Shown here in pieces: positions 12,005 to 39,790 of a DNA stretch of 64,000 nucleotides. Made by a program: the position numbers and the translations under genes. This stretch comes from an uncultured Methanosarcinales archaeon (GTDB taxonomy: Archaea; Nanobdellota; Nanobdellia; Woesearchaeales; UBA583), in contig CAZULG010000001.1 in the NCBI GenBank assembly GCA_964621065.1, positions 11,082 to 75,081 of the forward strand, in the 5' to 3' direction. Numbering within the stretch: position 1 is the first letter of the stretch; the number at the start of each line of letters is the position of its first letter. The notes under the pieces are model-generated. The model was not told where the DNA came from. It made no database searches and saw only the letters and a program-made list of their open reading frames with translations.

Positions 12005-12211
12005 ATGGTAACATCTAAAACTCTTCATGAAAATGATATTAGAAATATTGTAAGAGATGAAATTTCTCAGATAGTTCCTGAGTTTGAAATAATAACTGAG
12101 TCTCAATTATCATTAAGAGAAAAAAATTTGTGTTTAGAAGCTGAAGAAGAATACAAAAAGGGAGAAACAATATCTTTTGAGGAAGTGTATGATAAAATTT
12201 TAGATGAATAA
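12005..12211 (+). CDS. Putative antitoxin of a type II toxin-antitoxin pair
   Basis: 68-aa acidic protein whose stop lies 3 nt before the RelE-like toxin start. Confidence 0.4.
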   Translation: MVTSKTLHENDIRNIVRDEISQIVPEFEIITESQLSLREKNLCLEAEEEYKKGETISFEEVYDKILDE

Positions 12212-12213
12212 AA

Positions 12214-12474
12214 ATGTATGATATTCAATTTTCAAAAGAATCATTTAAATTTCTTGAAAAACTTAAAGATAAAGAGTTAAAGAGGAGATTGCTTAAATCA
12301 ATCTTTCTACTTAAACTGGAACCTTATCCTAAGAATAATTTTAAGCTTTTAGAACCCTACAAAGAAAAAATAAGAATTAGAGTTGGCAAATATAGAATTC
12401 TCTATACAGTGAAGGAAAAAGAATTAGTTATTTTAATTATTACTATTGATAAAAGAGGAAGAGTTTACAAATAA
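12214..12474 (+). CDS. RelE/ParE family toxin
   Basis: 86 aa ending ...VGKYRILYTVKEKELVILIITIDKRGRVYK, the RelE/ParE C-terminal pattern. Confidence 0.55.
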   Translation: MYDIQFSKESFKFLEKLKDKELKRRLLKSIFLLKLEPYPKNNFKLLEPYKEKIRIRVGKYRILYTVKEKELVILIITIDKRGRVYK

Positions 12475-12620
12475 TCTATTTCTCTTCAAATGCTTCTCTT
12501 AATACACTTTCCAGCAGTTTTTGTGCATATTCTTTTGAATTTTTGATCTCTTCTTCTAATTTATCACAATACCGCATCAATTCATCAACTTTTTGGGTTA
12601 TTCATTGTTGTTTCTATAAA

Positions 12621-15600
12621 TTATTCTCTTTTATTTTTATTTAACTTTTTTGAATCTTCAGCCATTGTAGGCAGACTTGAATTAGAAGGATAACTATAAC
12701 TTTTTATTTCATCAATTGGGTTTTGTATTTCATTTTCTATCTCAAAGTTGTCAGTTGTCTCCTTAACTTGAGCTAATACAATATCTATTGCATCTTTTTG
12801 GTCCTCAGGAGGATATTTGTATTTTGTCAGTAATCGTTTGATCATAACTCTCATTTTTGCTCTTGCAAATTCTCTTTTATCCCAATCAATAGTTTTGTTT
12901 TTTCTGATTTGAATTACTAGCTCTTTTGCAATTTCTTTTAAGACATCTTCGCCCATTACATCTTTTATTTCATCTTTATAACTTAGAGCATCATAAAATG
13001 CAATTTCATCATCACTTAATCCCATTGAATTTCTTCTGTTAAATTGTTCTTTGAAATGTTTTGCCAAATTAATCATTTCTTCAATAACTTTAGCAGTCTC
13101 AATAGTTCTATTTTCATACTTTAAAACAGTATTTTTTAGTATTTCAGAAAATTTTAACTCCATTGCCTTATTATGTTTTGATTTAGTTTTTATCTCATCA
13201 TTAATGAGTTTTTTTAATAATTCAAATGTCAAATTTTTATGCTCTTTATTTTTCAATTCATCTAAAAAATCATCTGAGAGTACTGAGAGTTCTGGTTTAT
13301 CAATTCCTGCTATTTGATAGATATCTACTACTTCTTTTCCTGTAATAGCATTATTGAGTAATTCGTTTAGTTTTGTATTATAATTTACTTCAGTAGTTTT
13401 ATGTTCTCTTGCATTTAATTTCAAAAGGGAAATTCTCACTGCTTGGAAATATTTAATGTCTAAAACTAAATCCCTTGCTTCTTGTGATTGAGGACATAAT
13501 GAATGAGCTTTAATTAATTCAAATGTTGTTTTCATAAATAATTCTTTCTTTTTTTCTCCTTGTGAGAGGATATGTTCCATTCCATCTTCAATTAGTCTTA
13601 TTCTTTTAAAGTATTCAACTGACTCATCTTTGAAATCTTCATAGTTAAAATGTTTAAATAATGAGCTCACGATTTCAAATTTATCTTTCATCACATCAAT
13701 TGCGTGTGAAATTTCTTTTCCAATTACTTCTTTGTCTGAGTCAGAGTAAAAGCTTACTGCTTGTTTTAAAAATTGACCAATTCCAATATAATCTACTACT
13801 AAACCTGAATCTTTGTCTTTGAATACTCTATTAACTCTTGAAATTGCTTGAATTAAGTTATGTCCTTTAATTGGTTTGTCAATATACATCGTGCTCACAC
13901 ACGGAACATCAAAACCTGTGAGCCACATATCACGAACGATTACAATTTCTAATTCATCCTCTTCATCTTTAAATCTTTGAGCAATTGCATCTTGTTCTTT
14001 TTTGCTTCTAATATGATCTTGAAGTTTTTGTTTATCTGATGAAGCACCACTAAATATTATCTTCATCTTTCCTTTAGAATCATCATCATCGTGTAAATCC
14101 GGTTGTAGAGCTTTTAGTATATTATAAAAATCGACACAAATTTCTCGAGACATACATACAAACATTGCTTTTGATTTGAAATTTGATTTTCTTGATTTGA
14201 AATGTTGCAAAAAATCTTTTGCAATTAATTCTAATCTATTTTTATTTCCAACTATTGCTTCAAGTTGTGCCCACTTTCGTTTTGCTTGATTTGATTTAGC
14301 TTCATCATTTTCAGTTATTTCTTCAAATTCTGAATCTAGTTGAGTCAAATATTGTTCTTCTAAACCAATTTTTGCAAGTCTTGATTCATAATAAATTGGA
14401 ACTGTTGTTTTATCTTCAACAGATTGTGCCATTGTGTATTTATCAATATAATCTCCAAATACTTCTGAAGTGTTCTTTCCATCTAATTCTAAAGGTGTCC
14501 CTGTAAATCCAATGAATTGAGCGTTTGGAAGAGAATCTCTCATATGTCTTGCATATCCTTTAATAAAATCATATTGACTTCTATGTGCTTCATCTGCAAT
14601 GATGAATATATTTTTCCTATTTGATAATTCATCTGCTTTTACTTTTTCTTTTTCAAGTAAGAATTTTTGAATTGTTGTAAATATAATCCCTCCTGATTCT
14701 CTGTGTTGTAATAATTCTTTGAGATGTTCTCTATTTTTTGCTTGATCAGGAACTTGTTTTAATATATCAACAGAACCTGAAAATGTTGAAAATAACTGGT
14801 CGTCTAAATCATTTCTATCAGTTAAAACAATAATTGTTGGATTGTTGAATTCATTGATGAGTTTTCCTGTATAGAATGTCATTGAAAATGATTTTCCACT
14901 TCCTGTTGAGTGCCAAATGACTCCTACTCTGTTTGAATTTGTAGTTACTGCTTGATGTGATTTTTCAATTGCTTTATTTACAGCAAAATATTGGTGATAT
15001 GAGGCTAAAATTTTAATTGTTTGTTTTTGTTTATTTTTTTGAATTGTTATGAAATTGTGAATGATATCTAAGAAATGTTCTTTTTTATACATTCCATTAA
15101 TTTGAGTTTCAATTTGAACAAAACTTTTATTGTGTCTTTTTCCATCTTCTGATTTCCATTGTACAAATCTATCAAATTCTGCTGTTATTGTTCCTGCTCT
15201 TGCTTCAAATCCATCTGATATAACTAAGAATGTGTTGTATGTGAATATGTTAGGTATTCTTCGTTGATATGTTTTTATTTGCTCATATGCACTCTCAATT
15301 GTTGTTTTCTCATCACTTGGATTTTTCAACTCAATTATTGAGAGAGGAATTCCATTAAGATATACTACTATGTCTAGGCGTTTTTGATTCTGATCTTGAA
15401 TAATAGTGAGTTGATTTGTTGCTAGAAAATTATTATTATGTATGTTGTGTTTATCAAATAAAAATACTTTTTCATATTTTTGAGTTTTCTCATTATATGT
15501 ATCTACTCCGTTTAAAATGTAATTGTGAAATTCGAGATTTGCTTCTTCTAATACAGGGTGTGTGATTGCTTGAATTTTTTTAACAGCTTCATCTATTTGT

Positions 15601-15779
15601 TTTTGAGTTTTATTTATGTTGATTTGTTTTAACTGAGCTTTTAATCTATTTGTGAGAATAATATTTGCATGGTTTTGTTCTCTCTCATTAATTAAATCGG
15701 GTCCAAATAAATATTCATATTTTAACGATTTGAATAATTCAAGCACTGCTTGTTCTAGAGAATCCTCATTAAACTTCAT
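12621..15779 (-). CDS. hsdR: Type I restriction enzyme R subunit HsdR
   Basis: 1052 aa with helicase motifs HSTGSGKSFS (Walker A) and IIADEAHRSQ (DEAH), and the N-terminal nuclease region. Confidence 0.9.
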   Translation of the reverse strand: MKFNEDSLEQAVLELFKSLKYEYLFGPDLINEREQNHANIILTNRLKAQLKQININKTQKQIDEAVKKIQAITHPVLEEANLEFHNYILNGVDTYNEKTQKYEKVFLFDKHNIHNNNFLATNQLTIIQDQNQKRLDIVVYLNGIPLSIIELKNPSDEKTTIESAYEQIKTYQRRIPNIFTYNTFLVISDGFEARAGTITAEFDRFVQWKSEDGKRHNKSFVQIETQINGMYKKEHFLDIIHNFITIQKNKQKQTIKILASYHQYFAVNKAIEKSHQAVTTNSNRVGVIWHSTGSGKSFSMTFYTGKLINEFNNPTIIVLTDRNDLDDQLFSTFSGSVDILKQVPDQAKNREHLKELLQHRESGGIIFTTIQKFLLEKEKVKADELSNRKNIFIIADEAHRSQYDFIKGYARHMRDSLPNAQFIGFTGTPLELDGKNTSEVFGDYIDKYTMAQSVEDKTTVPIYYESRLAKIGLEEQYLTQLDSEFEEITENDEAKSNQAKRKWAQLEAIVGNKNRLELIAKDFLQHFKSRKSNFKSKAMFVCMSREICVDFYNILKALQPDLHDDDDSKGKMKIIFSGASSDKQKLQDHIRSKKEQDAIAQRFKDEEDELEIVIVRDMWLTGFDVPCVSTMYIDKPIKGHNLIQAISRVNRVFKDKDSGLVVDYIGIGQFLKQAVSFYSDSDKEVIGKEISHAIDVMKDKFEIVSSLFKHFNYEDFKDESVEYFKRIRLIEDGMEHILSQGEKKKELFMKTTFELIKAHSLCPQSQEARDLVLDIKYFQAVRISLLKLNAREHKTTEVNYNTKLNELLNNAITGKEVVDIYQIAGIDKPELSVLSDDFLDELKNKEHKNLTFELLKKLINDEIKTKSKHNKAMELKFSEILKNTVLKYENRTIETAKVIEEMINLAKHFKEQFNRRNSMGLSDDEIAFYDALSYKDEIKDVMGEDVLKEIAKELVIQIRKNKTIDWDKREFARAKMRVMIKRLLTKYKYPPEDQKDAIDIVLAQVKETTDNFEIENEIQNPIDEIKSYSYPSNSSLPTMAEDSKKLNKNKRE

Positions 15780-15831
15780 TTATAAGAGAATTTAGTTGTT
15801 TTATATTTAAATAGTTACTGGTTTAGACTGA

Positions 15832-16350
15832 TTATTGTTTTATGATTTTAAAATTATTATATTTAAACAGGTATTGGGAGATATTAATATATTTTATTTG
15901 TTCGGCTTTACAAATTGTTGGAATTTTTAAAAACAAATTTTTATTATATTTCTCATTTGTAGTTTCGTTTGTTACAATTATAGGTGTTACATTTAATCTT
16001 GTCTTTTCTAAATGTTTTACTAATTCTATTAAATATAAATCTACATATTTATCAAGAAACTTTTTCTTTTCTGAATCAAAAACTCCATTAAATTTTGAAT
16101 TTTTATGTGCTAATTTTTCCAAAAAAAAAGTTTCTTCAACTTTTTGACTTAAAAAATTAGTATCTACTGACTTAATATTTTTCTTAAATGAATCATTTCC
16201 TACTAATTCTCCTTCTACTTTATCAATTACTACGACTTCTTCTGATTGAATTTTTTCTAATAAAAACGAGTACAACTCTTTATTATCATTAGAATAATAT
16301 TTAAAATAATCTATTAATGCACAGGTATCAAAAATAAATACAGGACTCAT
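15832..16350 (-). CDS. DUF4411-like PIN-like domain protein
   Basis: N-terminal VFIFDTCALIDYF acidic PIN-like motif; 172 aa; 4-nt overlap with the upstream ImmA-like gene. Confidence 0.45.
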   Translation of the reverse strand: MSPVFIFDTCALIDYFKYYSNDNKELYSFLLEKIQSEEVVVIDKVEGELVGNDSFKKNIKSVDTNFLSQKVEETFFLEKLAHKNSKFNGVFDSEKKKFLDKYVDLYLIELVKHLEKTRLNVTPIIVTNETTNEKYNKNLFLKIPTICKAEQIKYINISQYLFKYNNFKIIKQ

Positions 16351-17564
16351 TTTTTAGGTAATAACCTCTCAATTTCAAACTCTTTAATTAGTCCATTTTC
16401 ATAATTGATCATTAATATATCTTGAAAAAGTCTTGATTGTTTAGGTTTTGGTTTGGTATAAGGTATTTGTTTTTTGAATTCTTTAATATTTTCATCAGTA
16501 ATTTCAATCCCTTTTTTATTCATTTCAGACTTTATTTGAGATTCTCTTTCTTGTTTTTCTAGTTCTTTTTTTGTTTGAACATTTTTCTCTATTTCTTTGA
16601 GTTTATGCTCATATTCTTTATGAGAAATTATTTCTTGTTTTCTTAAATGAGTATAGAGAGCTGAATTACTTAAATATGTTTTTTGATATATCTCTTCTAC
16701 ATTTGTTTTAGTTAGATTTTCTTCAAAGAGTAAAAAATTAAATGCAAACTCATTACACCATTGCTCTACTTTATTAATTGAGATAATTGGGTACTCTATT
16801 TGTTCGACTTCTTCAATATCAAGTAAATGATGTCCTAATTCGTGAAGTAGAGTAAATATTTGTTTTCTAGGATAATCTTTTTCTCGTTTAACCACTATAC
16901 AATTTGGTTGTATATAACATCCGTTAAAATTAATATTTTGTTTGGAATTTGGTGAGTCTACATGTTCAAATACTATTACATTTAGCTCATCAAGTATTGT
17001 TATCATATTTTTAATGAATACTTCTTCATTGTTTGATTTTGTAGTGTTTAGTTTTTCGTTATTGAGTGTTTTTTTACTGATTTGTTTTGATTGTTTTAAT
17101 TGATGTTCTATTTCTTCACATTTTAATCTTATTGATGTTGCAACTTTTTTTGGATTATCTCTTATATTATAAGTATCTAATTTTCTTGATAAATCATAAT
17201 CAATATTTTTAGCTAAACTTTGAATTTCTTTTGATAATTGTTCGTAATTATCAATTACTTTTCTGCTATATAAGTCTAAATTAGTTTCAAATTGATTATT
17301 TTTTCTTAAAAATATTGAAGAGTTAGTATTTGTTATATCATCTCTTCTATAATAAAAACTTAGTCCTTGATTGAATACTTTATCTATTTTTTTAAGCGTT
17401 TGAATTTTCACAGGGTTTTGAAGATCTTTTTCTTTGATTTTTGTCAGTTCTATAAATTCTTTTTGCGTGAGATTAAATTTTTTAAGAAGAAAGTTTAGTC
17501 GATTATAATTGAGAGTAAATGTTGTATTATTACTCAAATTATTTAAAGAAGCTACAAGAGACAT
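16347..17564 (-). CDS. XRE-type HTH fused to an ImmA/IrrE family zinc metallopeptidase
   Basis: HTH-like LTQKEFIELTKIKEKDL near the N-terminus, central FTLLHELGHHLLD (HExxH), and a coiled-coil C-terminal extension. Confidence 0.55.
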   Translation of the reverse strand: MSLVASLNNLSNNTTFTLNYNRLNFLLKKFNLTQKEFIELTKIKEKDLQNPVKIQTLKKIDKVFNQGLSFYYRRDDITNTNSSIFLRKNNQFETNLDLYSRKVIDNYEQLSKEIQSLAKNIDYDLSRKLDTYNIRDNPKKVATSIRLKCEEIEHQLKQSKQISKKTLNNEKLNTTKSNNEEVFIKNMITILDELNVIVFEHVDSPNSKQNINFNGCYIQPNCIVVKREKDYPRKQIFTLLHELGHHLLDIEEVEQIEYPIISINKVEQWCNEFAFNFLLFEENLTKTNVEEIYQKTYLSNSALYTHLRKQEIISHKEYEHKLKEIEKNVQTKKELEKQERESQIKSEMNKKGIEITDENIKEFKKQIPYTKPKPKQSRLFQDILMINYENGLIKEFEIERLLPKK

Positions 17565-17622
17565 ATTTTCAAAGAGTTATTAAAACTTATAAATTTTTGT
17601 TATTATTTGAAGAAGAGGGGAA

Positions 17623-18588
17623 TTATTCTAAGTCTTCTTCATCAAATCCTTTTACATTACTTTGATTTAATAAATTTACTTTTGTGGACTCTATTTCATC
17701 TATTTCATCCTGAGATTTGTATTCCTTAACTTCATACTTAGGAGAACTGATAATTTTCAATTCTCCTGTGATTTTATTTTTATCAATTTCTCTCCCTGTA
17801 ATTTCATATTTTAAAATGACTTCTCCTTCCTTCTCACATTTAACATAAATTTCAGGAAATCTTGTTGGAAAATGTTGATCTGCTTCTTCACACCAGTACT
17901 GAATGCGATTATTTGAACTAAGAAATACATTTTCACTAGGCTCAATTTTAGAATAAGACTTAATTTCAGGAAATTGGTTTTTATAAATATTAGGATACTC
18001 TCTAATAAAATTAAGTTTGTTTGATATACTTTCAAAGGTGATTCTTACATCTTCAACTCTTATATTTCCTAAATTATTAAGTTTAATTTTAAAAGGTAGG
18101 AATTCTTCCTCAATTTCCTTCAAAGCTTCTTCTTCAATTTGAGTTGGACCTTGGAAGAAATTAAATTTTCCTGATATTATAGAAGATAGAGATGAGCTTG
18201 GAAGACTTATCTTTTTTAATTCCTCTTTTTCTTCTTGAGTTAAGTCATCTTCTTTTTCATCTTTTATGAGTTTTCGTTTAGTAATTGTTGAATTTATTTC
18301 TATTTCTTTCAAATCATTATCAAATACTACATCTAATTTTGGTTTATTATCTTCAAAATGTTTAATTTTGTCAAGTTCTTCCTTCCAAACCTTGTAGGAT
18401 GAATATATTAAAGCTAAAACAAAAAAAATGACTGTTATAATAAAAATATACTTATCTGAAAGATTTACTCCAATTTTTAATGAAAAATCAAAATATGTAT
18501 TAACTAAACCTAAAATAGTTGGTATAATACCTATAACAGTAACCCAATTAGAAAATATTTTCTTCAAATAATATATTAAATCATTCAT
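17623..18588 (-). CDS. Uncharacterised protein with two N-terminal TM helices and a long charged cytoplasmic domain
   Basis: TM1 WVTVIGIIPTILGLV and TM2 IFIITVIFFVLALIY; the rest is Glu/Lys-rich; the start overlaps the hsdS stop by 8 nt. Confidence 0.35.
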   Translation of the reverse strand: MNDLIYYLKKIFSNWVTVIGIIPTILGLVNTYFDFSLKIGVNLSDKYIFIITVIFFVLALIYSSYKVWKEELDKIKHFEDNKPKLDVVFDNDLKEIEINSTITKRKLIKDEKEDDLTQEEKEELKKISLPSSSLSSIISGKFNFFQGPTQIEEEALKEIEEEFLPFKIKLNNLGNIRVEDVRITFESISNKLNFIREYPNIYKNQFPEIKSYSKIEPSENVFLSSNNRIQYWCEEADQHFPTRFPEIYVKCEKEGEVILKYEITGREIDKNKITGELKIISSPKYEVKEYKSQDEIDEIESTKVNLLNQSNVKGFDEEDLE

Positions 18589-19915
18589 TCTTTACTCTAA
18601 TTTCTCCTCTCATTAATTTTGGAAGTAAAACATCCCTTGTATTTTGAAGATATTGAATTTCATTTAAGTTATCAATATAATTATTAAAAAAATTTGAATA
18701 TATCTTTTCAAATTCAATTAGTGTATTTTTATTAGAAATCAAAAGAGAGATATTTTCTATTTCAGTAGAACTGATATTTGGTTGTGCTGAACCAATTGCT
18801 TTGTCTCTTATTTTTTTCAAATATTCATTGGAGTTGAAAACAATATATGAGTATAATAATCCATAATCAAAAATTTGTTTAAACATTCCTACTCGTTGAT
18901 TTAATAATAGTTTATAATTTGATTTTTGAACAACTCCTATTTTCCCTATTTCTGCACCAGTCATTGCAATTAAAATATCTTTTTCTTTAATTATAAATTT
19001 TGAATCTAAGTTTTGAATTGAATTATCATCAATAAATCCAGAATCTGTTAGGTTTACAATTCCTCCTGAAATATTTTTTATTTTGATTAATCTACTCTTA
19101 CTATATTTAACAAAATCTTTACTCTTAAATGCATAACCACTCTGGATTTTTACTAATTCTCCTAATCTTCCGGCTCTCCATCCCTTTGGAATTTCTTTTC
19201 CTAATTCTTCACAAAACACCATTTCTCCTCCATTTGATTTATATTCTTCTCCATTTTCATTTGGAAATTCAAAATCAACAAACCACCTTTTAAAAAGTGT
19301 TTTTCCCATCTCTTCAAGTGTTTGATTAATGTGTTTATTCATTTCAATTTTTGAGTCTAAATCACTTAAGATTTTCGCAATAGATTTTTGTTCTTCAATG
19401 GTTGGAGGGAGAGGAATATTGACTTTTTCTAAAATACTAACATATAAGTTTTTTTGAACACTTCCAACTGCCTTTGATTTTAGTTCTTCTCGAATCAATT
19501 TCAAAAAATTTAATATATATTTAGTTTGATTTTTATCAATTGGATTAATATTAATGATTGCTCTGTTTCCACACATAAAATCCTTCAAAACTCCTAATTT
19601 TCCAATTGTCCCAGACTTACTTATTGCAATAGACTCAGGTTCAAACAACTTAGCACTCTTGCCTGCACTTTTGAAACCTTCTTTAGAAAGCTTTCTACTT
19701 GTGTCATAGATAAAAGTATCATTTAAATCATTAACTCTTAACCATTTAATTTCATCACCAAAAAAATTTGGATTCGTTTGAGAAGGATTTACATATCCTT
19801 CTTGGAATTTACAAAGTTCTCCTAACTCCTTAACTTCCCAATCATGAGGGATTTTTCCAATTTCAGTATCTTTAAATTCTGTTTCTTTGTAAGTGTTCAT
19901 TTTAAAATCCTCCAA
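18581..19915 (-). CDS. hsdS: Type I restriction-modification specificity subunit HsdS
   Basis: Two target-recognition halves, each followed by a conserved helical spacer (HINQTLEEMGKTLFKRWFVDFEFP; NTRDVLLPKLMRGEI). Confidence 0.8.
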   Translation of the reverse strand: MEDFKMNTYKETEFKDTEIGKIPHDWEVKELGELCKFQEGYVNPSQTNPNFFGDEIKWLRVNDLNDTFIYDTSRKLSKEGFKSAGKSAKLFEPESIAISKSGTIGKLGVLKDFMCGNRAIININPIDKNQTKYILNFLKLIREELKSKAVGSVQKNLYVSILEKVNIPLPPTIEEQKSIAKILSDLDSKIEMNKHINQTLEEMGKTLFKRWFVDFEFPNENGEEYKSNGGEMVFCEELGKEIPKGWRAGRLGELVKIQSGYAFKSKDFVKYSKSRLIKIKNISGGIVNLTDSGFIDDNSIQNLDSKFIIKEKDILIAMTGAEIGKIGVVQKSNYKLLLNQRVGMFKQIFDYGLLYSYIVFNSNEYLKKIRDKAIGSAQPNISSTEIENISLLISNKNTLIEFEKIYSNFFNNYIDNLNEIQYLQNTRDVLLPKLMRGEIRVKNE

Positions 19916-21363
19916 TATCCAGCTTTTGTTGAACCTTCTCGCTTAATTATTCCTCTATCAACTAATTGCTTCAAATTATATTTAATCCCATCTTCAGATA
20001 TTTTCTCAATTATTAAAGAAAGTTCTTTTCTTGTAATTTTAGGATTTTTCTTAATTTCAAGTACTATTTTTTTCTGAATATCACTTAATATTTCTTGGGT
20101 AGTTTCTTGGGTAGTTTCTTGGGTAGTTTCTTGGGTAGTTTCTAGGTCTTTTTCTAGGTCTTTTAATCCCTCATCTTCTTTAGTAGTACTTAAAAAAAAC
20201 TCAATAGTGTAATTATCAATATCATTTCTAACAACAGGCTCTTGTTTATACAAACTCAACCAACCATTAAACATTTTATCAAATCCATATCCAGCATTTT
20301 CAGCTAAATCAACAACTCTAAATATTTTAGTAATAATGGGATTTCTAGGAAGAGAAATATCACAACTCCTTAAAATTTCATATGGTTTTGGTAAAGAACC
20401 AGGGTTAAAAAATTCAAATCTATTTGAAAACACTCTAATTCTAGGCTTCATTGGTGAAAAATAATCACTATGAATTAACAAATTAACTAAAGCTTCTCTA
20501 ATTGCTTTAACCTGTGGTTGATTCTCAACTCTATGAGGTCCACTCATTTCAAAAGGAACATCAATTTTTTTAATAATCCTCTCATAAATAGCAAAAAAAT
20601 ATTCAAACAAATTTGAATGTTGTGAAAGTCTAAACTCATATCTACGAAGAGAATCACTATAACTTGTTCCCATAATTTCTAAATAATCAACTCTAAAATC
20701 AACAAAATATCTAGAAATTGAATCTTCACTTCCAAAAACTAATAAACCTCCCAATGTAACATGTAAATTTTCATCTAAAACTCTAAGTTTAGTTAAAAAA
20801 TCAATATCATTTAAAGTATTATATTGATGTTCAGGTTTTAGATTTAATAAATATTGACGAAACCTTGAAATTGTCTCTTTATTCAAATCATCAATTCTTA
20901 AATTTGTAATCTCTCTATCCTTAGTCCCATAAGATGAATTTCTATACAAAGAATCAATTTCTTCTTGAGTTAATCTCTGATCTCCTGAACCAGTTCTAAT
21001 AAATGTATTTTTTAAAGAATTAAAATAAATAGGTTTCTTTTCAGCTATTGGAATATAAAAACCTAATACAATGTTATCTTCAAATTCCCATTTTTCACAT
21101 TTTGGAATTATTTTTTGATTAAATTTACCAACTCTTAGAGCAGTTGTAAAATCTTGTTCAATTTTTTCAGGATGTTTAACTCCAGTAATTTCAAAATTTT
21201 TACCTTTTTCACTCACTCCAAAAATTAGCCAACCACCCGAAGTATTTGAAAATGCTGAAACAGTTTCCCAAGAAGATTTAGGAATTGAAGAATCACAAGT
21301 TTTAAACTCCAAATCCTCCCATTCAATCCCTTCTAGATGTTTAACTAATTCCTCTTTTTTCAT
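19897..21363 (-). CDS. AlbA_2/Schlafen-like ATPase-type DNA-binding regulator (COG2865-like)
   Basis: N-terminal DLEFKTCDSSIPKSSWETVSAFSNTSGGWLIFGV (AlbA_2 domain), and a C-terminal HTH-like ITRKELSLIIEKISEDGIKYNLKQLVDRGIIKR; it sits between hsdM and hsdS. Confidence 0.55.
   Translation of the reverse strand: MKKEELVKHLEGIEWEDLEFKTCDSSIPKSSWETVSAFSNTSGGWLIFGVSEKGKNFEITGVKHPEKIEQDFTTALRVGKFNQKIIPKCEKWEFEDNIVLGFYIPIAEKKPIYFNSLKNTFIRTGSGDQRLTQEEIDSLYRNSSYGTKDREITNLRIDDLNKETISRFRQYLLNLKPEHQYNTLNDIDFLTKLRVLDENLHVTLGGLLVFGSEDSISRYFVDFRVDYLEIMGTSYSDSLRRYEFRLSQHSNLFEYFFAIYERIIKKIDVPFEMSGPHRVENQPQVKAIREALVNLLIHSDYFSPMKPRIRVFSNRFEFFNPGSLPKPYEILRSCDISLPRNPIITKIFRVVDLAENAGYGFDKMFNGWLSLYKQEPVVRNDIDNYTIEFFLSTTKEDEGLKDLEKDLETTQETTQETTQETTQEILSDIQKKIVLEIKKNPKITRKELSLIIEKISEDGIKYNLKQLVDRGIIKREGSTKAGYWRILK
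20091..20162. repeat. In-frame 12-nt tandem repeat inside the regulator gene
   Basis: TTTCTTGGGTAG x4 (20091-20138) then TTTCTAGGTCTT x2 (20139-20162); on the coding strand this encodes (TTQE)x4 preceded by (KDLE)x2. Confidence 0.9.
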
Positions 21364-21444: not shown

Positions 21445-22944
21445 CTAAATTTTAAATCCCAATCCTTCTAGATTCTTCTTGATCTCTTCTTCTAACTCAT
21501 CAGATTTTTTAAACTGCTCAGATAACTCATTAACCAATCTCCTCATTTTATCTTCATATGGCTCACTATCCTCCTCTTCATCTTTTACACCAACATATCT
21601 TCCTGGGGTCAGTACAAAATCTTGCTTAGAAACTTCATCAATGCTCACTGATTTACAAAATCCTTTAATATCTTCATAGTCTTGTGAATTTTGCCAACTA
21701 TGCACCGTTTGAGAAATATAGGAAATCTCATCAGAAGACAACTCTCTTAATCTTCTATTAATCATCTCTCCCATATCACGACAATCTACAAAGAGTATCT
21801 CATTTGTTCTCTTCTTATCTCTATTCAAGAACCACAAACATGCAGGAATTCCTGTGTTATAAAATAACTTATCAGGCAATGCAACAATACACTCAACTAA
21901 ATCATCTTTAATGATTTTCTTTCTAATCTCACCTTCTCCAGCAGTATTTGAAGACATAGAACCATTTGATAATACAAAACCAGCTTTTCCTTTTTGAGAT
22001 AAATGATAAATAAAATGTTGAACCCACGCATAATTTGCATTTCCATTCGGAGGCATACCATACACCCATCGAGGATCCTCTTGTAATCTATTAGCCCCCC
22101 AATCTGAAATATTAAACGGAGGATTTGCAATAATAAAATCAGCTTTCAAAGACGAATGTTGATTAAAATGAAAACTATCATCAGCTCTCTCTCCTAAATC
22201 ATGATCTAATCCTCGAATTGCTAAATTCATTTTACACAATTTCCAAGTAGTAGGATTACTTTCTTGACCATATATTGACAAATCTCCAACTCTTCCACCA
22301 TGAGCCTCCACAAATTTCTCACTCATTACAAACATTCCTCCACTTCCACACGCAGGATCATAAATTTTCCCCTCATAGGGTTCTAAAATCTCAACTAAAA
22401 GTTGAACAACGCTATCAGGAGTATAAAACTCTCCTCCGCCCTTTCCCTCAGCTGATGCGAATTTTCCAATAAAGTATTCATAAATTCTTCCCAAAATATC
22501 TTTACTCTCTTCATACGATTTTCCAGAATCAATTGAATGAATCAAATCAACAACTTCTCCAAGAACAACCTTATTCAACTCAGGTCTTCCATAATTTCGA
22601 GGCAATACATTTCTAAGTGTCTTATTATCCTTCTCAATTGAAATCATAGCATTATCGATAACTTCTCCAATCTCAGGAGTTTTTGCCTTCTCAACAATAT
22701 TTGACCATCTCGCATCTTTAGGAACAAAAAAGACATGATGAGCGAGATACTCATCCTTATCTTCAGGATCTGCATATTCTTCAGTTTTAATTCTCTCATA
22801 AATATTCTCAAAGGAATCAGAAATAAATTTTAAAAATATTAAACCCAAAATAACATGCTTATACTCAGAAGCATCCATATTATTTCTCAACTTATCAGCT
22901 GCAGCCCATAATTTAGCTTCCAATTTTGAATTTTCTTCAACCAT
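21445..22944 (-). CDS. hsdM: Type I restriction-modification methyltransferase subunit HsdM
   Basis: N6-adenine MTase motifs DPACGSGGMF (motif I) and IANPPFN (motif IV), plus the HsdM N-terminal domain. Confidence 0.9.
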   Translation of the reverse strand: MVEENSKLEAKLWAAADKLRNNMDASEYKHVILGLIFLKFISDSFENIYERIKTEEYADPEDKDEYLAHHVFFVPKDARWSNIVEKAKTPEIGEVIDNAMISIEKDNKTLRNVLPRNYGRPELNKVVLGEVVDLIHSIDSGKSYEESKDILGRIYEYFIGKFASAEGKGGGEFYTPDSVVQLLVEILEPYEGKIYDPACGSGGMFVMSEKFVEAHGGRVGDLSIYGQESNPTTWKLCKMNLAIRGLDHDLGERADDSFHFNQHSSLKADFIIANPPFNISDWGANRLQEDPRWVYGMPPNGNANYAWVQHFIYHLSQKGKAGFVLSNGSMSSNTAGEGEIRKKIIKDDLVECIVALPDKLFYNTGIPACLWFLNRDKKRTNEILFVDCRDMGEMINRRLRELSSDEISYISQTVHSWQNSQDYEDIKGFCKSVSIDEVSKQDFVLTPGRYVGVKDEEEDSEPYEDKMRRLVNELSEQFKKSDELEEEIKKNLEGLGFKI

Positions 22945-22952
22945 ACAAAAAT

Positions 22953-22981
22953 CACAATAATTTTATTTATAAATTATTGTG
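22953..22981 (-). promoter_or_regulatory. Palindromic operator-like element over the TATA-like box just upstream of the hsdM start codon
   Basis: CACAATAAT-TTTATTTATAA-ATTATTGTG: 9-bp inverted arms flank an A/T box centred ~23 nt upstream of the ATG, suggesting a leaderless transcript. Confidence 0.35.
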
Positions 22982-33265: not shown

Positions 33266-36200
33266 ATGAATTATCAATTTCTATTTTTAAAAAAATTGTA
33301 TCTTTTTTTTGCATTTTTTGTTCTCTTCTCAATCATCTTAGCGCCTCAGAGTTATGCTATTTGTGAAGTAACATCATTTATTAATCAAACTACTCCATCT
33401 CCTCAGGATAGATCTTGCTCTTCAGATGATGGGTATGTTATTACAGATATTACAGGAGATATTTACTGTAGTAATGACCCATTCAATCCTGGAGATTTTG
33501 AGTTTAAAAAAATAACAATTGAAAATTCAAATATTAACTTTATCAATTGTAACTTTAAATATGCAAGTGGAGCATCTGAAGAAATCGATATTTCAAATTC
33601 AACAATTGCTGGATATGGACTAAAGTTTGAATCACCATCTTCTATTGAAAATAATTTTATTTCAGAATTTACAAATGATTCAACAAATTCATATTATGGT
33701 TTTGAGAATAATTTATTCGATATTTACAAAGGAAATGACTCAACACAAGTGTTTGCTCAAGGTGTTGATATTAAAAGAGGTTTTTCAATTCAAAATACTT
33801 CAAGTGGAAATTTTACGAGTATTTCTAAATTTAATACATTAAAAACAATTCCCGATGTAATTGGAAGTGTTGATATGTATCATGTGTATGTGCCATTTCA
33901 ATCGATAACTAATAGTAGTGCAAATAATGATTTTGATAAATCATACAACATTGAATTTGATTTTGATAGTTCAATTGACTCATTGAATTTCTCTTATTCT
34001 AATTTTTCCTCCCTTGATGTTATTCAAGAAGTTCAGATTCCAAAAAACTATCCTCCAACACCCCTCATTGCTCAATATATGTATAATCCTACAACAAATT
34101 ATCAAGAAATTGAAATTAATTTTGATGAATATGTTCAATCGTTAAATATAACAATACTTGATTCAACAAATCAAGAAGTTTTTAATTATTCAGGTGGAGG
34201 ATTAAAAAATATCAGTTTAGAAAATCTTCCTTTTGATTTAAATGAGAGTGAAGAATATGAAGTTCAATTTGAATACATTGATTATTTTTCAAACGCAGAT
34301 TTGAAAAGTATTATTTTAAAATCACCAAGTATTAATAACACAGAGTTTGAAGATGAGTTTTCATTAAATTATATATTTAACCAATCATCAACTGCAACGT
34401 TAGATGCAACGCTGCAAATTGAACCAACAGCAATCTCAACTCCACTCTCCTCACTAGAATTCTCGTCAACTTCACTCTCAAGCCCATTATTTAATATTAC
34501 AAATTCAACTCAAATAACATTTAACTCAAGCTCAATATTTACAATTCCAACAAACTCAAGTTTCTATCAACCTCACAAAGGAGTTATTTCATCTTCTGCG
34601 TTTAATTCATCTCCTGTTGTACAACTCGATAATTCTTCATTTGCTCAATCAACACGTAATAGAGATGGAAATTTTCAATATTCAATTTCTACTCCTAGAA
34701 ATGTATTTGAGATTTTAAACAATACTAAAATCACACCTCAATTTCCTGAAGATATTTATTTTAATAAATCATTTACACTTGAAGCATTATATCTTCAAAC
34801 AAGTGATAATTCACTCATATCTCCCTCCTCGTGTACTATTTACTACAACACACTAACCCCAACACAAACCGTTCAAAATATGACCTTTCAACCATCTCTT
34901 TCAACATTTAATACTTCAATATTATTCAGAGAGTTTTACCCACTCCAACAACCCTTAACTATTCAATGTTCAAATGAACTTGGACTTGAGAATGTATCTA
35001 ATACATTTACAATTAATCAAACAACCCAACCAATTGATAATTTTACAAGTGATATCTCTTACAATCCTAAAAGCCCAGGATCATTTACAACAATTGAAAA
35101 AGAGCTCAATATTAGTATTTCATCTCAAGGTTCTCAAAATATTAACTCTAATTTTGATAATGAATACTCAGTTATGATTTCTCGAATTGAATATTTAAGA
35201 GAGGGATGGAATACGAGCAGAAATTTAACAAATTGGATCAATATTGGAAAAAATGAAGAAGCAAGATTTTCGCATAGCGATCTGAACTATTCTAAATCAA
35301 TTAGACTTGATTTAGAAAATTCTTCAACTCAACAATTAAATAATAGTTTCATATTTAGAGATATTAAAGATGAAAATGGAGATGCAATTTCTTTATTTGT
35401 TATTGTAAAATCTTGTGTACCACCGTATTCAAATGAAGCATGTGAATTTTTCTCTAACTCATCTCAATTTTATATCTTTCAAGACTCAACTCCTCCACTG
35501 CTTTATGATTTTGCGCTTAGAAATATGACCAATGATGATAATTTTTACATAAGAATTAATGTTGATGATTTAGAAAGTGATATTGAATACGCAAATATGA
35601 GATTTTCAAATGCACATAACACCTCAGACTCATTCTCCCTTCCACTCACAAATTACATTAGTGAAGAACTTGGAATTCAAAATGCACCATTAAATAGTAT
35701 CTCATCAATTGAAGAAGGAATTTTATATAATCTCTCAATTAATACTTCAAATAACAATAACATTGCAAATGAAAATCTTGATATTCAAAACCAACTGCTT
35801 CTTGATAACCAGCCGCCTAGTAATTCAAGTCTTCAATTACTCGATACATCTTTATACAATACTTCACATAATAGATTTTACACTAACAATGGAACTCAAG
35901 TTAAGTTTAATATAACATCTGGATTTGATAATTTTATTGGATATCAAAATAATAGTGGAATTAGTCACTACAATCTTACACTATATTCTATGTCAAATGA
36001 TTGCTCAATTCGAGAAAATCAATCAAACTCAATATCAAACAATATTAGTGATAATCAAACCCAAATTATAACTCTCAATATGACTCAAGACACGTGTAAT
36101 GAGCTTGAACTTGTTGTGTTTGATAACGCTGGAAATCAAGAAGTTGTGGATACACTTGAAATAGTTGTTGATACAACCCCTCCAACATTTAATAATGTAG

Positions 36201-39200
36201 ATGGACAACTCAAAATATCACCTATAGGCTCTAACAGCAAATTTTTTAACAGAGATAATCTCAACAAAGACTCAGTTTTATTTAGTTATCAATACGATAT
36301 AAGTGATGATTTAACACCTTTAAAGGAAATCACAGTTAATTTGTATGAGAAACTTAATACAACTGGAGCATCTTCTAATTTAGTTAAACAACTTAATGTC
36401 TCAACTGATTCAAAACAAATTGATTTTACGCTTAGTAATTATTCATTTAAAGATAATCGAAAGTATAAAATTGGAATTGTTGCAGAAAATTTTGCTCAAC
36501 TGCAAACTCCTCAAATTGAATCTTCTGAAATATTTCTAGGATTAACATCCTCTCTCAATATTACACCAAAAGGATTTTTACGAGAAGATGATAATTCATT
36601 TTATTACTCACCACAATTTCTCAATGGAGCTAATTATCCACTTGAATTTAATAATAATAATCAAGCAGATGTAAGTTGTTCTCTTAATACAATTATTCAA
36701 AATTATTCTCTAAGTGATACAAATCAATGCAGTTTAAGTCCAGATAGTTCAATTCTCTCTTGTCAAGCATCTCAAAGTGATATTGAGCAATACGAATACG
36801 TTATTGCAAATTGTTTCATCAGTAATGTTGAAGAAGATGTTCAAGAATATTTCTCTAAAAATATCTCATTTACAACTCTTAATCAAACAAGTAGAGCAGA
36901 TATTGATTTTCAAGTTATCCCAAATAGAACATTTTTCTTTGATAATGAGACAATTGGATTTAATTTTACAACAAAAAATGATAGAGATGATGCTACATAT
37001 TTATTAGAGCAAACACTCAACTCCCCCACAAATAATATTAGTTCAATGAAATTTAATCAAAAAGGACAAAATTTAACACGAGATAATTTGAGTAATTTTA
37101 ACACCTCAATCACACCAACTGCGTCTCAATCTTTTTTCATATTTAATAATTCATATAATAAAACTTCACCTGTGCTCAATTTTACATATAATGGACTCAT
37201 TCCAATATATGAATTTAAATTTAATAATTCTATAAATCAATCACAAATTAACTTGTTAATAGAAAATTTTTTAAGTGAAAATCAAAATGTTGAAGATAAA
37301 CTAACTACTAATTTAACAGTTAATCTCACAGCACCTATCACTAATAGTTTTACTCTTAACACTTCAAATTTTAATAGAAAATTAGACTTTGATACAAGCA
37401 TTATTGAACACGAATTTATGATTCCTAATTTGAATAATAATCAACTCACATTTGAAGCATTAATTGATCAGAGTAATAAATTTGAGGATATTTATTTGAA
37501 AAATTTAAGCACTTACACGTCTTACTTAAACTATAGCACTTCTAATACATTTAATTTTGAATTTTTTGATTATTTCTCATTTGATAATAATGTGACATTC
37601 TCATTCAATTCAACTGATGAGCCAGATGAGCTGCAACTAAACTCATCTCAAAGTTTTAATTTGACACTTGATCCAACTCAAATTAACAAAATTAATTTAT
37701 CTAAATTCATCATTAACAACAATACACAAATTCCTAGCAGTCTCTATTCTATCTCAACACAAATCTCAAATACTCCTTCAACGCTTGAATACAGTTTAAA
37801 CAATAATTCTAAAAATACAGTTGAAGAAGAGTTAATGCTCTATTTAAATGATGGAATAACTAATTCTGAGCAAACAATTGATGTAGTTATGAGTGATAAT
37901 TTTGGATCCTCAGTTTCATTTGAATTAAATTTAAATTGGAATTTAAGTCAAATTAATAGCAGTAGTTATGATATGTCTGAATTCAATACAAATATTTCAA
38001 ATTTCATTACAAAAAAGCAATCATCTTGGTACATTGATTTTGGTGTGGAGCAGAATATAATCTCTCAAATCTCATTTGAAATCGAAAATTCAACAGTTGA
38101 ATATCCTCTCAATATAGATGGTAAAGTGAATGATTCAATTTATACTCTTGCATTTACAAAACAAATTTATGATGAGCTCCATAACAAGTATTTCAATGAA
38201 GATGTTTATGAAGTAGATATCTCAACCACATACACAACTCCTTTTGATATTGAATTTACAGTTAATGATACAATAGAGTTTGATTTTGATGTGAATGAAA
38301 ATACTATTTCAGATAGATTTGACATAGATTTAGATAATAATGGTATTAATGATTTAATACAATCAATAATCTATAATAAAAGTCTTGTGTTCAATATTCC
38401 TACTTCAAATGTAGAAGAAACATTTAATCTTACAAATACGAGTTATTTTAATATCTCATCTGATGTATTTAATTCAAATATTATAATTTCATGGAATGAT
38501 AACAACTCAAATGTGTGGGACTTTTCTTCAACGTATGTGAATATAGAAGAAGTTGAAATTGAAAATTTTAATAAAGTTGGTTCAAGAATGAGCATTGATA
38601 AGTTCCCTAAATTTGATTCAAAAAAATCAATTCAAGTTCCAAAAATTTCTCAAAATAGTGAGTTACAATATTGTATAGGAAATAACGAAAATCTTCAAAC
38701 TTCTAGTAGTTGTAGCGGTAGTGATGAATATCTTGTTGAGAGTTGTGACTCATCAATTGGTGGAGGAATTGAATGTGTTGAAGAGTCTAATAGCTTGACA
38801 TTTACAAATCTCTCATTTACAACTATTGAGACCATTTGCAGTTCTTGTGAAGAAAGTAATGATGACTCCTCTGATGATTCTTCTGGAAATGATAATGATG
38901 GAAGTTCTGGAGGAGGTTCTAGCAGTGGTGGCTCTTCAAGTGGTGGAGGCGGAGGAAGTTCTGGAGGAGGATTTGTAACACAACCCGATATTGAAGAAAA
39001 TAAATCAGATGAGGATGAATCTCAACAAGATGAAGAAAATGGTAGCAATAATGAACCCGAAGAAGTAGAAGAAGTTGATGAAAATGATACTCAAACAACT
39101 GAAGATTCTGATAATGAAAACAATAACAATAATGAAGAAAATCAAACAACTACTTCTGAAGAAAATGAACAAGAAAATGCTCAAGATGAAGTTCCCACTA

Positions 39201-39790
39201 CACCTGAAGAAGAGTCTTCAATGTCTACAATATTAATAGCAGCAGTAATTATTTTGCTACTAATAGTTGCTATTGTTGGTGTTTATTTATATCAACAAAA
39301 GAAGAAAAAGAAAAGAACATCAGCTCTTAGTGTTAAAAATTATAAACAACAAAGTAGCCTATCTAACGAAAAAACACAAAGACCTTTAACTTCTCTAACA
39401 CTTAGAGAAAGAGAAGAATTTTTAACTAAAATTGGGCCATTAATCTATAAAAAAACTCCGTTAAGTGTAATTGCAAAGAAATATAATATTTCTACTAAAA
39501 AAGATATTCAAGAACTATTAAATATGATATATGTAGACACATTTATTGAAAACATTAAAAGAGAACTTGAGAAAAAAACATTTATGCTTACTCCTCAAAT
39601 TATCTCAGAGTTGAAAAATACAAAGTGGTTTAATTCTCTCAATCCATGCTCTGACAATTCTTCATATTTAAGAGATTTAGGCTTTTTCATATCTCAATAC
39701 AAAATAACTCATGTGTTCAACTCAAATGAATTAAAAGAAATAATTACTGATTCTATTTATGAAGAAATATCATCTCAAAATGAAAACTAA
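33266..39790 (+). CDS. Giant (2174 aa) cell-surface protein: signal peptide, huge N/S/T-rich ectodomain, Ser/Gly and acidic stalk, one TM anchor, ~150-aa cytoplasmic tail
   Basis: N-terminal LFFAFFVLFSIILAPQSYA signal and hundreds of N-x-S/T sequons. Near the C-terminus GSSGGGSSSGGSSSGGGGGSSGGG then a poly-acidic stretch. TM ILIAAVIILLLIVAIVGVYLY is followed by a KKKKKR stop-transfer and a tail containing TPLSVIAKKYNISTKKDIQELL. Confidence 0.6.
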   Translation: MNYQFLFLKKLYLFFAFFVLFSIILAPQSYAICEVTSFINQTTPSPQDRSCSSDDGYVITDITGDIYCSNDPFNPGDFEFKKITIENSNINFINCNFKYASGASEEIDISNSTIAGYGLKFESPSSIENNFISEFTNDSTNSYYGFENNLFDIYKGNDSTQVFAQGVDIKRGFSIQNTSSGNFTSISKFNTLKTIPDVIGSVDMYHVYVPFQSITNSSANNDFDKSYNIEFDFDSSIDSLNFSYSNFSSLDVIQEVQIPKNYPPTPLIAQYMYNPTTNYQEIEINFDEYVQSLNITILDSTNQEVFNYSGGGLKNISLENLPFDLNESEEYEVQFEYIDYFSNADLKSIILKSPSINNTEFEDEFSLNYIFNQSSTATLDATLQIEPTAISTPLSSLEFSSTSLSSPLFNITNSTQITFNSSSIFTIPTNSSFYQPHKGVISSSAFNSSPVVQLDNSSFAQSTRNRDGNFQYSISTPRNVFEILNNTKITPQFPEDIYFNKSFTLEALYLQTSDNSLISPSSCTIYYNTLTPTQTVQNMTFQPSLSTFNTSILFREFYPLQQPLTIQCSNELGLENVSNTFTINQTTQPIDNFTSDISYNPKSPGSFTTIEKELNISISSQGSQNINSNFDNEYSVMISRIEYLREGWNTSRNLTNWINIGKNEEARFSHSDLNYSKSIRLDLENSSTQQLNNSFIFRDIKDENGDAISLFVIVKSCVPPYSNEACEFFSNSSQFYIFQDSTPPLLYDFALRNMTNDDNFYIRINVDDLESDIEYANMRFSNAHNTSDSFSLPLTNYISEELGIQNAPLNSISSIEEGILYNLSINTSNNNNIANENLDIQNQLLLDNQPPSNSSLQLLDTSLYNTSHNRFYTNNGTQVKFNITSGFDNFIGYQNNSGISHYNLTLYSMSNDCSIRENQSNSISNNISDNQTQIITLNMTQDTCNELELVVFDNAGNQEVVDTLEIVVDTTPPTFNNVDGQLKISPIGSNSKFFNRDNLNKDSVLFSYQYDISDDLTPLKEITVNLYEKLNTTGASSNLVKQLNVSTDSKQIDFTLSNYSFKDNRKYKIGIVAENFAQLQTPQIESSEIFLGLTSSLNITPKGFLREDDNSFYYSPQFLNGANYPLEFNNNNQADVSCSLNTIIQNYSLSDTNQCSLSPDSSILSCQASQSDIEQYEYVIANCFISNVEEDVQEYFSKNISFTTLNQTSRADIDFQVIPNRTFFFDNETIGFNFTTKNDRDDATYLLEQTLNSPTNNISSMKFNQKGQNLTRDNLSNFNTSITPTASQSFFIFNNSYNKTSPVLNFTYNGLIPIYEFKFNNSINQSQINLLIENFLSENQNVEDKLTTNLTVNLTAPITNSFTLNTSNFNRKLDFDTSIIEHEFMIPNLNNNQLTFEALIDQSNKFEDIYLKNLSTYTSYLNYSTSNTFNFEFFDYFSFDNNVTFSFNSTDEPDELQLNSSQSFNLTLDPTQINKINLSKFIINNNTQIPSSLYSISTQISNTPSTLEYSLNNNSKNTVEEELMLYLNDGITNSEQTIDVVMSDNFGSSVSFELNLNWNLSQINSSSYDMSEFNTNISNFITKKQSSWYIDFGVEQNIISQISFEIENSTVEYPLNIDGKVNDSIYTLAFTKQIYDELHNKYFNEDVYEVDISTTYTTPFDIEFTVNDTIEFDFDVNENTISDRFDIDLDNNGINDLIQSIIYNKSLVFNIPTSNVEETFNLTNTSYFNISSDVFNSNIIISWNDNNSNVWDFSSTYVNIEEVEIENFNKVGSRMSIDKFPKFDSKKSIQVPKISQNSELQYCIGNNENLQTSSSCSGSDEYLVESCDSSIGGGIECVEESNSLTFTNLSFTTIETICSSCEESNDDSSDDSSGNDNDGSSGGGSSSGGSSSGGGGGSSGGGFVTQPDIEENKSDEDESQQDEENGSNNEPEEVEEVDENDTQTTEDSDNENNNNNEENQTTTSEENEQENAQDEVPTTPEEESSMSTILIAAVIILLLIVAIVGVYLYQQKKKKKRTSALSVKNYKQQSSLSNEKTQRPLTSLTLREREEFLTKIGPLIYKKTPLSVIAKKYNISTKKDIQELLNMIYVDTFIENIKRELEKKTFMLTPQIISELKNTKWFNSLNPCSDNSSYLRDLGFFISQYKITHVFNSNELKEIITDSIYEEISSQNEN

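Follow-up and report, generated by a model that had tools for sequence, protein, structure and literature searches.

The 64,000-nucleotide (nt) stretch of contig CAZULG010000001.1 analysed here (the window) comes from a metagenome-assembled genome of a DPANN archaeon, Candidatus Nanoarchaeia, and contains an intact type I restriction-modification (RM) locus whose hsdM, hsdS and hsdR genes all encode complete Pfam domain sets. Embedded in this locus are an AlbA_2/HATPase_c_4 gene, a gene for a membrane-anchored protein with transmembrane (TM) helices and a modelled β-sandwich (the TM gene), and a pair of genes encoding an ImmA/IrrE (M78) zinc-metallopeptidase and a DUF4411 PIN-like protein. We consider it probable that these are three independent cargoes of the RM locus, and that the TM gene and the ImmA-DUF4411 pair do not belong to one system. 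A preliminary description of this DNA had correctly placed the TM, ImmA and DUF4411 genes, co-directional on the minus strand, between hsdS and hsdR, and had proposed that the three constitute an undescribed tripartite module of the abortive-infection or toxin-antitoxin kind. Such a module is not supported: the cargo sits in a known insertion hotspot, the TM family is absent from every other ImmA-DUF4411 locus, and the two-gene pair has already been described. ImmA-DUF4411 is predicted to act, from its own promoter, as a RosmerTA-like pair, whether in type II toxin-antitoxin fashion or in abortive infection. What is observed in the pair is a 4-nt gene overlap, an intact HExxH motif, the full set of acidic PIN residues and, where such boxes usually lie in the window, a promoter-like TATA box.

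The spacing of the genes separates the TM gene from the pair. The start of the TM gene (17623-18588, minus strand) lies over the stop of hsdS with an overlap of 8 nt, while an intergenic gap of 58 nt (17565-17622), containing a TATA-like box that is the predicted promoter of the pair, precedes the ImmA gene (16347-17564, minus strand). The ImmA and DUF4411 genes overlap by 4 nt (ATGA), and 52 nt separate the DUF4411 gene (15832-16350, minus strand) from hsdR. The earlier picture of three overlapping genes had assigned to the trio an 8-nt overlap that belongs to hsdS and TM; by this arrangement the TM gene is translationally coupled to hsdS, not to ImmA. Since all three proteins have homologues, none of the three open reading frames (ORFs) is a chance one; the TM and DUF4411 proteins are recorded, identical in sequence, in an NCBI metagenome-assembled genome of Candidatus Nanoarchaeia.

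The distribution of promoter-like sequences points the same way. The motif TTTAWA was counted in the 80-nt upstream regions of the 45 window ORFs of at least 150 amino acids (aa), and 12 matches fell between −32 and −29 relative to the start codon, roughly 8 times as dense as in the rest of those regions. This clustering indicates archaeal TATA promoters and mostly leaderless mRNAs in this genome, and a TATA box 29-32 nt before the start codon is thus a promoter signature useful for parsing operons in this lineage. TTTATA stands at −29 from the ATG of hsdM (22968-22973) and, inside the 58-nt gap, at −29 from the ATG of the ImmA gene (17588-17593), and TTTAAA at −32 from hsdR (15806-15811). No TATA box was found at −32 to −29 before the AlbA_2, hsdS, TM or DUF4411 genes. 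Because such boxes precede hsdM, ImmA and hsdR only, the string is probably organized, as far as sequence can tell, in three transcription units: hsdM-AlbA_2-hsdS-TM, ImmA-DUF4411, and hsdR. The idea of a single operon running from hsdM to hsdR is weakened accordingly. Scanning for sigma-70 promoters and terminators gave 71 sites where 69 were expected, which is uninformative for archaeal DNA this rich in AT.

The ImmA protein (405 aa), the predicted RmrA-like antitoxin and sensor, matches Pfam Peptidase_M78 (E 2.4e-6), the PADLOC RmrA model PDLC03944 (E 7.9e-8) together with three further RmrA models, PADLOC capP (E 8e-7), and phrog_2439 of PHROGs (E 3.4e-21). Its 110 homologues are about 385 aa long. 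In the 22 that were aligned, PF06114 matches every member, and H241, E242 and H245 of the HExxH motif, E267 and C270 are invariant, E267 being a candidate third zinc ligand. The gene had been described as an XRE helix-turn-helix (HTH)/ImmA fusion. The peptidase half of that assignment stands, with its HExxH residues in place, but an XRE HTH is unsupported by the sequence of the N-terminus: Pfam HTH_19 matches 1 of the 22 members, at E 0.084, and the hhalign probability against four XRE HTH domains is 0.6%. The homologue with the best E-value in the protein search (P0002, locus L001, 7630-8855) appears split, with residues 1-102 and 82-405 in different frames, through either a frameshift or an assembly error; the DUF4411 partner in L001 is also short, at 149 aa.

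The DUF4411 protein (172 aa), the predicted toxin and nuclease, matches PF14367 above the gathering score (E 2.5e-14) and phrog_11126 of PHROGs (E 2.4e-7). Across 28 aligned DUF4411 partners D104 and E129 never vary, and at least 90% of the partners retain D8 and E48, which gives the four acidic positions of a PIN-like site, so that its earlier identification as a DUF4411-like PIN-like protein is upheld.

The pair recurs widely. Exact-protein look-ups, a set with one genome for each GTDB species, IMG/VR and JGI metagenomes supplied the related loci, in which ORF calling and profile searches yielded 49 distinct ImmA loci at 95% identity. In 23 of 26 GTDB loci a DUF4411 ORF of 180-194 aa lies directly 3' of ImmA, as a rule overlapping it by 4 nt, and the partner is kept in nearly all metagenomic and IMG/VR loci; it is missing at contig ends, in degraded copies, and in L007 and L066, where there is room downstream and no partner was detected. 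Its retention in almost all 49 loci indicates that ImmA-DUF4411 is a conserved, mobile unit, and it is also present on IMG/VR viral contigs. In L001, L002 and L004, which hold the closest homologues for which long flanks are available, the pair stands alone, with neither hsd genes nor a TM homologue.

Six of the 49 loci, that of the window included, hold the pair inside a type I RM locus. In L005, its closest relative (ImmA 61% and DUF4411 65% identical), the pair is followed by a small TM ORF and then hsdR; in L010 the order is hsdM-hsdS-SNF2 helicase-GmrSD-x-pair-hsdR; in L065 an hsdR-like gene is followed by the pair and an hsdM/S fusion; L072 has the pair in reversed orientation, with hsdR on one side and hsdS-hsdM on the other; and L074 reads hsdM-PDDEXK_3-hsdS-AlbA_2/HATPase_c_4-pair-hsdR. 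The small ORF of L005 (1743-2150) encodes a protein of 135 aa that has TM segments and a coiled coil and is unrelated to the TM protein of the window. Two further loci, L007 and L031, have hsd genes within 10 kb, and 41 of the 49 (about 84%) show no RM genes within the flanks examined. We estimate that the association of the pair with RM genes is far above that of a random gene, and embedding of this kind is expected for defence-island cargo, since embedding in type I RM loci has already been described. Its reversed orientation in L072, and the many copies that stand alone, mark the pair as autonomous. The preliminary description was thus right that ImmA genes with PIN-like partners are recurrent defence cargo, almost all 49 loci having the partner.

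The TM protein (321 aa) belongs to a small uncharacterised family. No match to it was found in Pfam, PADLOC, NCBIfam or PHROGs, a word-indexed homology search returned only the protein itself, and a search of metagenome contigs with the single protein found no relatives. An exhaustive HMMER search of 1.8 billion cluster representatives retrieved 13 other proteins at E<=0.001, about 10 of them full-length and 24-29% identical by BLASTP; the family comprises about 12 members, in low-GC DPANN-like contigs. The protein had been described as having two TM segments and a long charged cytoplasmic domain. It does have two hydrophobic helices at the N-terminus, and charged residues make up 36% of its C-terminal part, but the soluble part is, according to its AlphaFold model, folded as a β-sandwich and not merely a charged tail. 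The single-sequence model was useless (pLDDT, the predicted local distance difference test score, 41), and that built from an 11-sequence alignment was usable; it predicts a generic Ig-like β-sandwich behind a TM hairpin, of a non-enzymatic type, and the family has no conserved catalytic residues. Its cytoplasmic location is putative.

Eight genomic contexts of the TM family could be compared, and in three of them (the window, L093 and L049) it is linked to RM genes, adjoining hsdS in the two that are fully resolved (the window and L093). L093 has the order hsdR-SduA_C-TM homologue-hsdS-x-hsdM, with an 8-nt overlap at the start of the homologue, and the homologue of L049 directly adjoins an N6_Mtase gene at that gene's end. 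The SduA_C gene of L093 (3353-4261; E 1.2e-16) encodes a Shedu-type nuclease and is embedded together with the TM homologue between hsdR and hsdS. An ORF downstream of the homologue in L049 looked HsdS-like by eye; neither Pfam nor BLASTP against the HsdS of L093 supported this. The other contexts contain an archaeal MCM fragment, a type IV secretion system (T4SS) pilin gene, or a transposase with a DUF3368 PIN gene, while L092 is uninformative; they point partly to archaea and mobile DNA. In L050 (3596-7456) the region around the TM homologue contains a gene for a DDE transposase, one for a DUF3368 (COG2405 PIN-like) protein and several ORFs without assignment, and a 63-aa ORF directly upstream of it, AbrB-like by eye, has no Pfam match. 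When the two sets of neighbourhoods were combined, the pair recurred, in RM loci among others, but the TM gene never stood beside it elsewhere: a TM-family hidden Markov model (HMM) and tblastn found no match in the 49 distinct ImmA loci other than in the window's own genome, and neither ImmA nor DUF4411 was seen in the seven other TM-family contexts.

Components of this locus have been encountered before. Matelska et al. (2017) predicted a three-component toxin-antitoxin system in which DUF4411.1 lies downstream of fused DUF955-HTH genes, with 13 archaeal members among the 643 counted (PMC5499597), and Makarova et al. (2009) linked COG2856 to PIN and RelE toxins (PMC2701414). The window pair shares with the HTH-DUF955 (ImmA, COG2856) and DUF4411.1 system its Pfam families, gene order and acidic PIN residues; it differs in that the N-terminal domain of the peptidase is, in this subfamily, not detectably an XRE HTH by sequence, and in its setting, a type I RM locus of a DPANN archaeon. 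RosmerTA combines a Zn-peptidase antitoxin with diverse toxins (Millman et al. 2022, 10.1101/2022.05.11.491447; Ernits et al. 2023, PMC10440598), and the window ImmA resembles it in matching RmrA models and in a two-gene layout of a predicted peptidase antitoxin beside a variable toxin, but the toxin candidate has no PADLOC RmrT match. PDB entries 9vzy, the solved complex of a distant relative, and 9vzz contain a 393-aa 'HTH cro/C1-type domain-containing protein' and a 'DUF4411 family protein' (162-174 aa), an architecture like that of the window pair and of similar lengths. The ImmA family profile matches 9vzy_A (E 2.3e-5) over the peptidase and the following helical region, the N-terminus falling outside the alignment, and the window DUF4411 protein gave no match to 9vzy/9vzz.

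Type I RM loci commonly carry embedded genes, as in the 'guilt-by-embedding' study of Payne et al. (10.1101/2024.01.29.577857) and Vibrio TgvAB (PMC11411939); such genes include the RM-embedded guardian PrrC (PMC12707154) and Campylobacter RloF. Like PrrC, RloF and TgvAB, the window cargo lies between hsdS or hsdM and hsdR, and the same hotspot holds GmrSD, Shedu-like, PD-(D/E)XK and AlbA_2 genes in L010, L074 and L093. Unlike them, it consists of a toxin-antitoxin-like pair and an uncharacterised membrane protein, and functional coupling to restriction is a feature of PrrC. No ABC-ATPase or anticodon-nuclease domain of the PrrC/RloC type was found in the TM, ImmA or DUF4411 proteins. The membrane-depolarising RmrT of Gordonia phage Kita (PMC10440598) resembles the TM protein in having predicted TM helices and a defence-island context. 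There is no sequence or specific fold relationship between the two, and the helices of the window protein are N-terminal, while the Kita toxin is predicted to be membrane-localised via its C-terminal region.

A single system of TM, ImmA and DUF4411 proteins, acting in abortive infection or as a toxin-antitoxin module, is nonetheless suggested by the adjacency and common direction of the genes, and one version of it would make the TM protein a second, 'toxin-first' membrane toxin under the same ImmA antitoxin. Antitoxins of the RosmerTA type take toxins on either side, 58% of them toxin-first, one validated RmrT is membrane-depolarising (PMC10440598), and the pair in L005 also adjoins a small TM/coiled-coil ORF, albeit a different one. 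Against this stand the neighbourhood data, which largely refute the module: the TM family occurs in none of the 48 other ImmA loci, ImmA and DUF4411 in none of the seven other TM contexts, and the TM family recurs in RM loci that lack the pair. Since, in addition, the overlap of the TM gene is with hsdS, and 58 nt containing a promoter-like box lie between it and ImmA, we regard a tripartite system as very unlikely. A different alternative would have the pair regulate the restriction locus, controlling hsdR expression during establishment instead of acting in defence or as a toxin-antitoxin system. In the window, L005, L010 and L074 the pair does occupy the place just upstream of hsdR, and ImmA/IrrE and CapP-type proteases work by repressor cleavage (PMC2701414; PMC10440598); however, 41 of the 49 loci offer no RM genes in the examined flanks for it to regulate, its orientation relative to the hsd genes is reversed in L072, it is carried on viral contigs, and DUF4411 keeps the acidic residues typical of PIN-type nucleases, all of which leave regulation of hsdR a highly improbable role.

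For the TM protein by itself, a role as a type I RM accessory would consist in tethering an HsdS-containing complex to the membrane or, in the manner of PrrC, in sensing inhibition of RM as a guardian. The RM-linked contexts favour such a role, as do the ends of the TM gene, which overlap or abut hsdS in the window, SduA_C and hsdS in L093 and an N6_Mtase gene in L049; the modelled fold is of a non-enzymatic, binding type, and PrrC provides the precedent of an RM-embedded guardian (PMC12707154). Five of the eight contexts, however, lack RM genes (neighbours there include a fragment of an archaeal MCM gene, a gene for a T4SS pilin, and PIN genes beside a transposase), the fold is generic, and the protein has no ATPase or nuclease domains of the PrrC type, so that an RM accessory is an unlikely though not negligible reading. 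More broadly, it is a tentative possibility that the protein defines a new, undescribed family with a specific link to type I RM, either as a membrane tether or guardian working with HsdS or as a single-gene, membrane-level defence beside hsdS.

Several observations weigh against the preferred reading, that of independent cargoes with a RosmerTA-like pair under its own promoter. The promoter assignment depends on a short motif in DNA of 28% GC, a terminator scan, uninformative in AT-rich archaeal DNA, found no terminator-like site between the genes, and read-through from hsdS is possible. No PADLOC RmrT model matches the DUF4411 protein of the window or the 27 partners aligned with it, the only PADLOC match among the 28 being one to PDC-S11, which is not an RmrT model; standard tools would therefore not call RosmerTA here. 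The resemblance to 9vzy is distant, with E 0.29 for the single window ImmA and 0.26 for the DUF4411 family profile. The contig of L005 is cut inside ImmA and the gene upstream is not visible, and the eight TM-family contexts lie mostly on very short contigs, several below 3 kb, which limits the meaning of ImmA's absence there.

A mechanism for the pair can be proposed from the families of its two proteins, on the model of RosmerTA, ImmA/IrrE and CapP. The M78 protein would bind and silence the PIN-like nuclease and probably repress its own promoter; an infection or DNA-damage cue would activate the peptidase, which would then cleave itself or its linker; and the released nuclease would degrade RNA, arresting the growth of the infected cell. 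The TM protein would be a non-enzymatic, membrane-tethered binding module co-expressed with HsdS, serving either as a single-gene defence or exclusion factor at the membrane or as an accessory of the RM complex.

These results extend the described pairing of M78 and DUF4411 proteins, and the habit of type I RM loci of collecting cargo, to DPANN archaea, whose defence repertoire is poorly charted. A useful by-product is the small TM family, still uncharacterised, which in three of its eight known contexts lies within a restriction locus or next to one, a modest new lead; by the logic of 'guilt-by-embedding' it is a testable candidate for a defence or RM-accessory gene.

The remaining genes of the locus share this minus-strand orientation. 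Predicted unit 1 begins with hsdM (21445-22944), encoding the methyltransferase (Pfam N6_Mtase E 8e-113, HsdM_N E 5.5e-27). It is followed by the gene for a 488-aa protein (19897-21363) with Schlafen/AlbA_2, HATPase_c_4 and winged-HTH domains (Pfam SLFN_AlbA_2 E 2.6e-19, HATPase_c_4 E 2.5e-12, HTH_24 E 8e-5), earlier referred to as a regulator, which overlaps hsdS by 19 nt. A 488-aa AlbA_2 and HATPase_c_4 protein is also embedded in the unrelated type I RM locus L074 (6180-7646), between hsdS and ImmA-DUF4411, and this gene thus represents a third recurrent cargo. Matches of the AlbA_2 protein to Argonaute-associated PADLOC models were judged to be shared-domain matches. The specificity gene hsdS (18581-19915) encodes two target-recognition domains (Pfam Methylase_S E 8e-40, in two stretches), and hsdR (12621-15779), for the restriction and translocase subunit, matches Pfam HSDR_N, SWI2_SNF2, T1R_D3-like and T1RH-like_C at E 5e-103 to 2e-24. 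In GC, GC3 and codon usage the cargo is indistinguishable from the hsd genes and from the remaining window.

Beyond the locus, a very large ORF of 2174 aa occupies 33266-39790 on the plus strand. Convergent with hsdR, at 12005-12474 on the plus strand, a 68-aa ORF with no Pfam match is followed 2 nt later by an 86-aa toxin of the ParE/RelE family (PF05016, E 7.4e-8), the two being probably another toxin-antitoxin module flanking the RM locus. Just downstream of hsdR on the minus strand (12476-12601) is a short open stretch whose translation ends in '...ELMRYCDKLEEEIKNSKEYAQKLLESVLREAFEEK*'; by eye this resembles the conserved C-terminal helix of HsdS, and the stretch may be a remnant of an older specificity gene.

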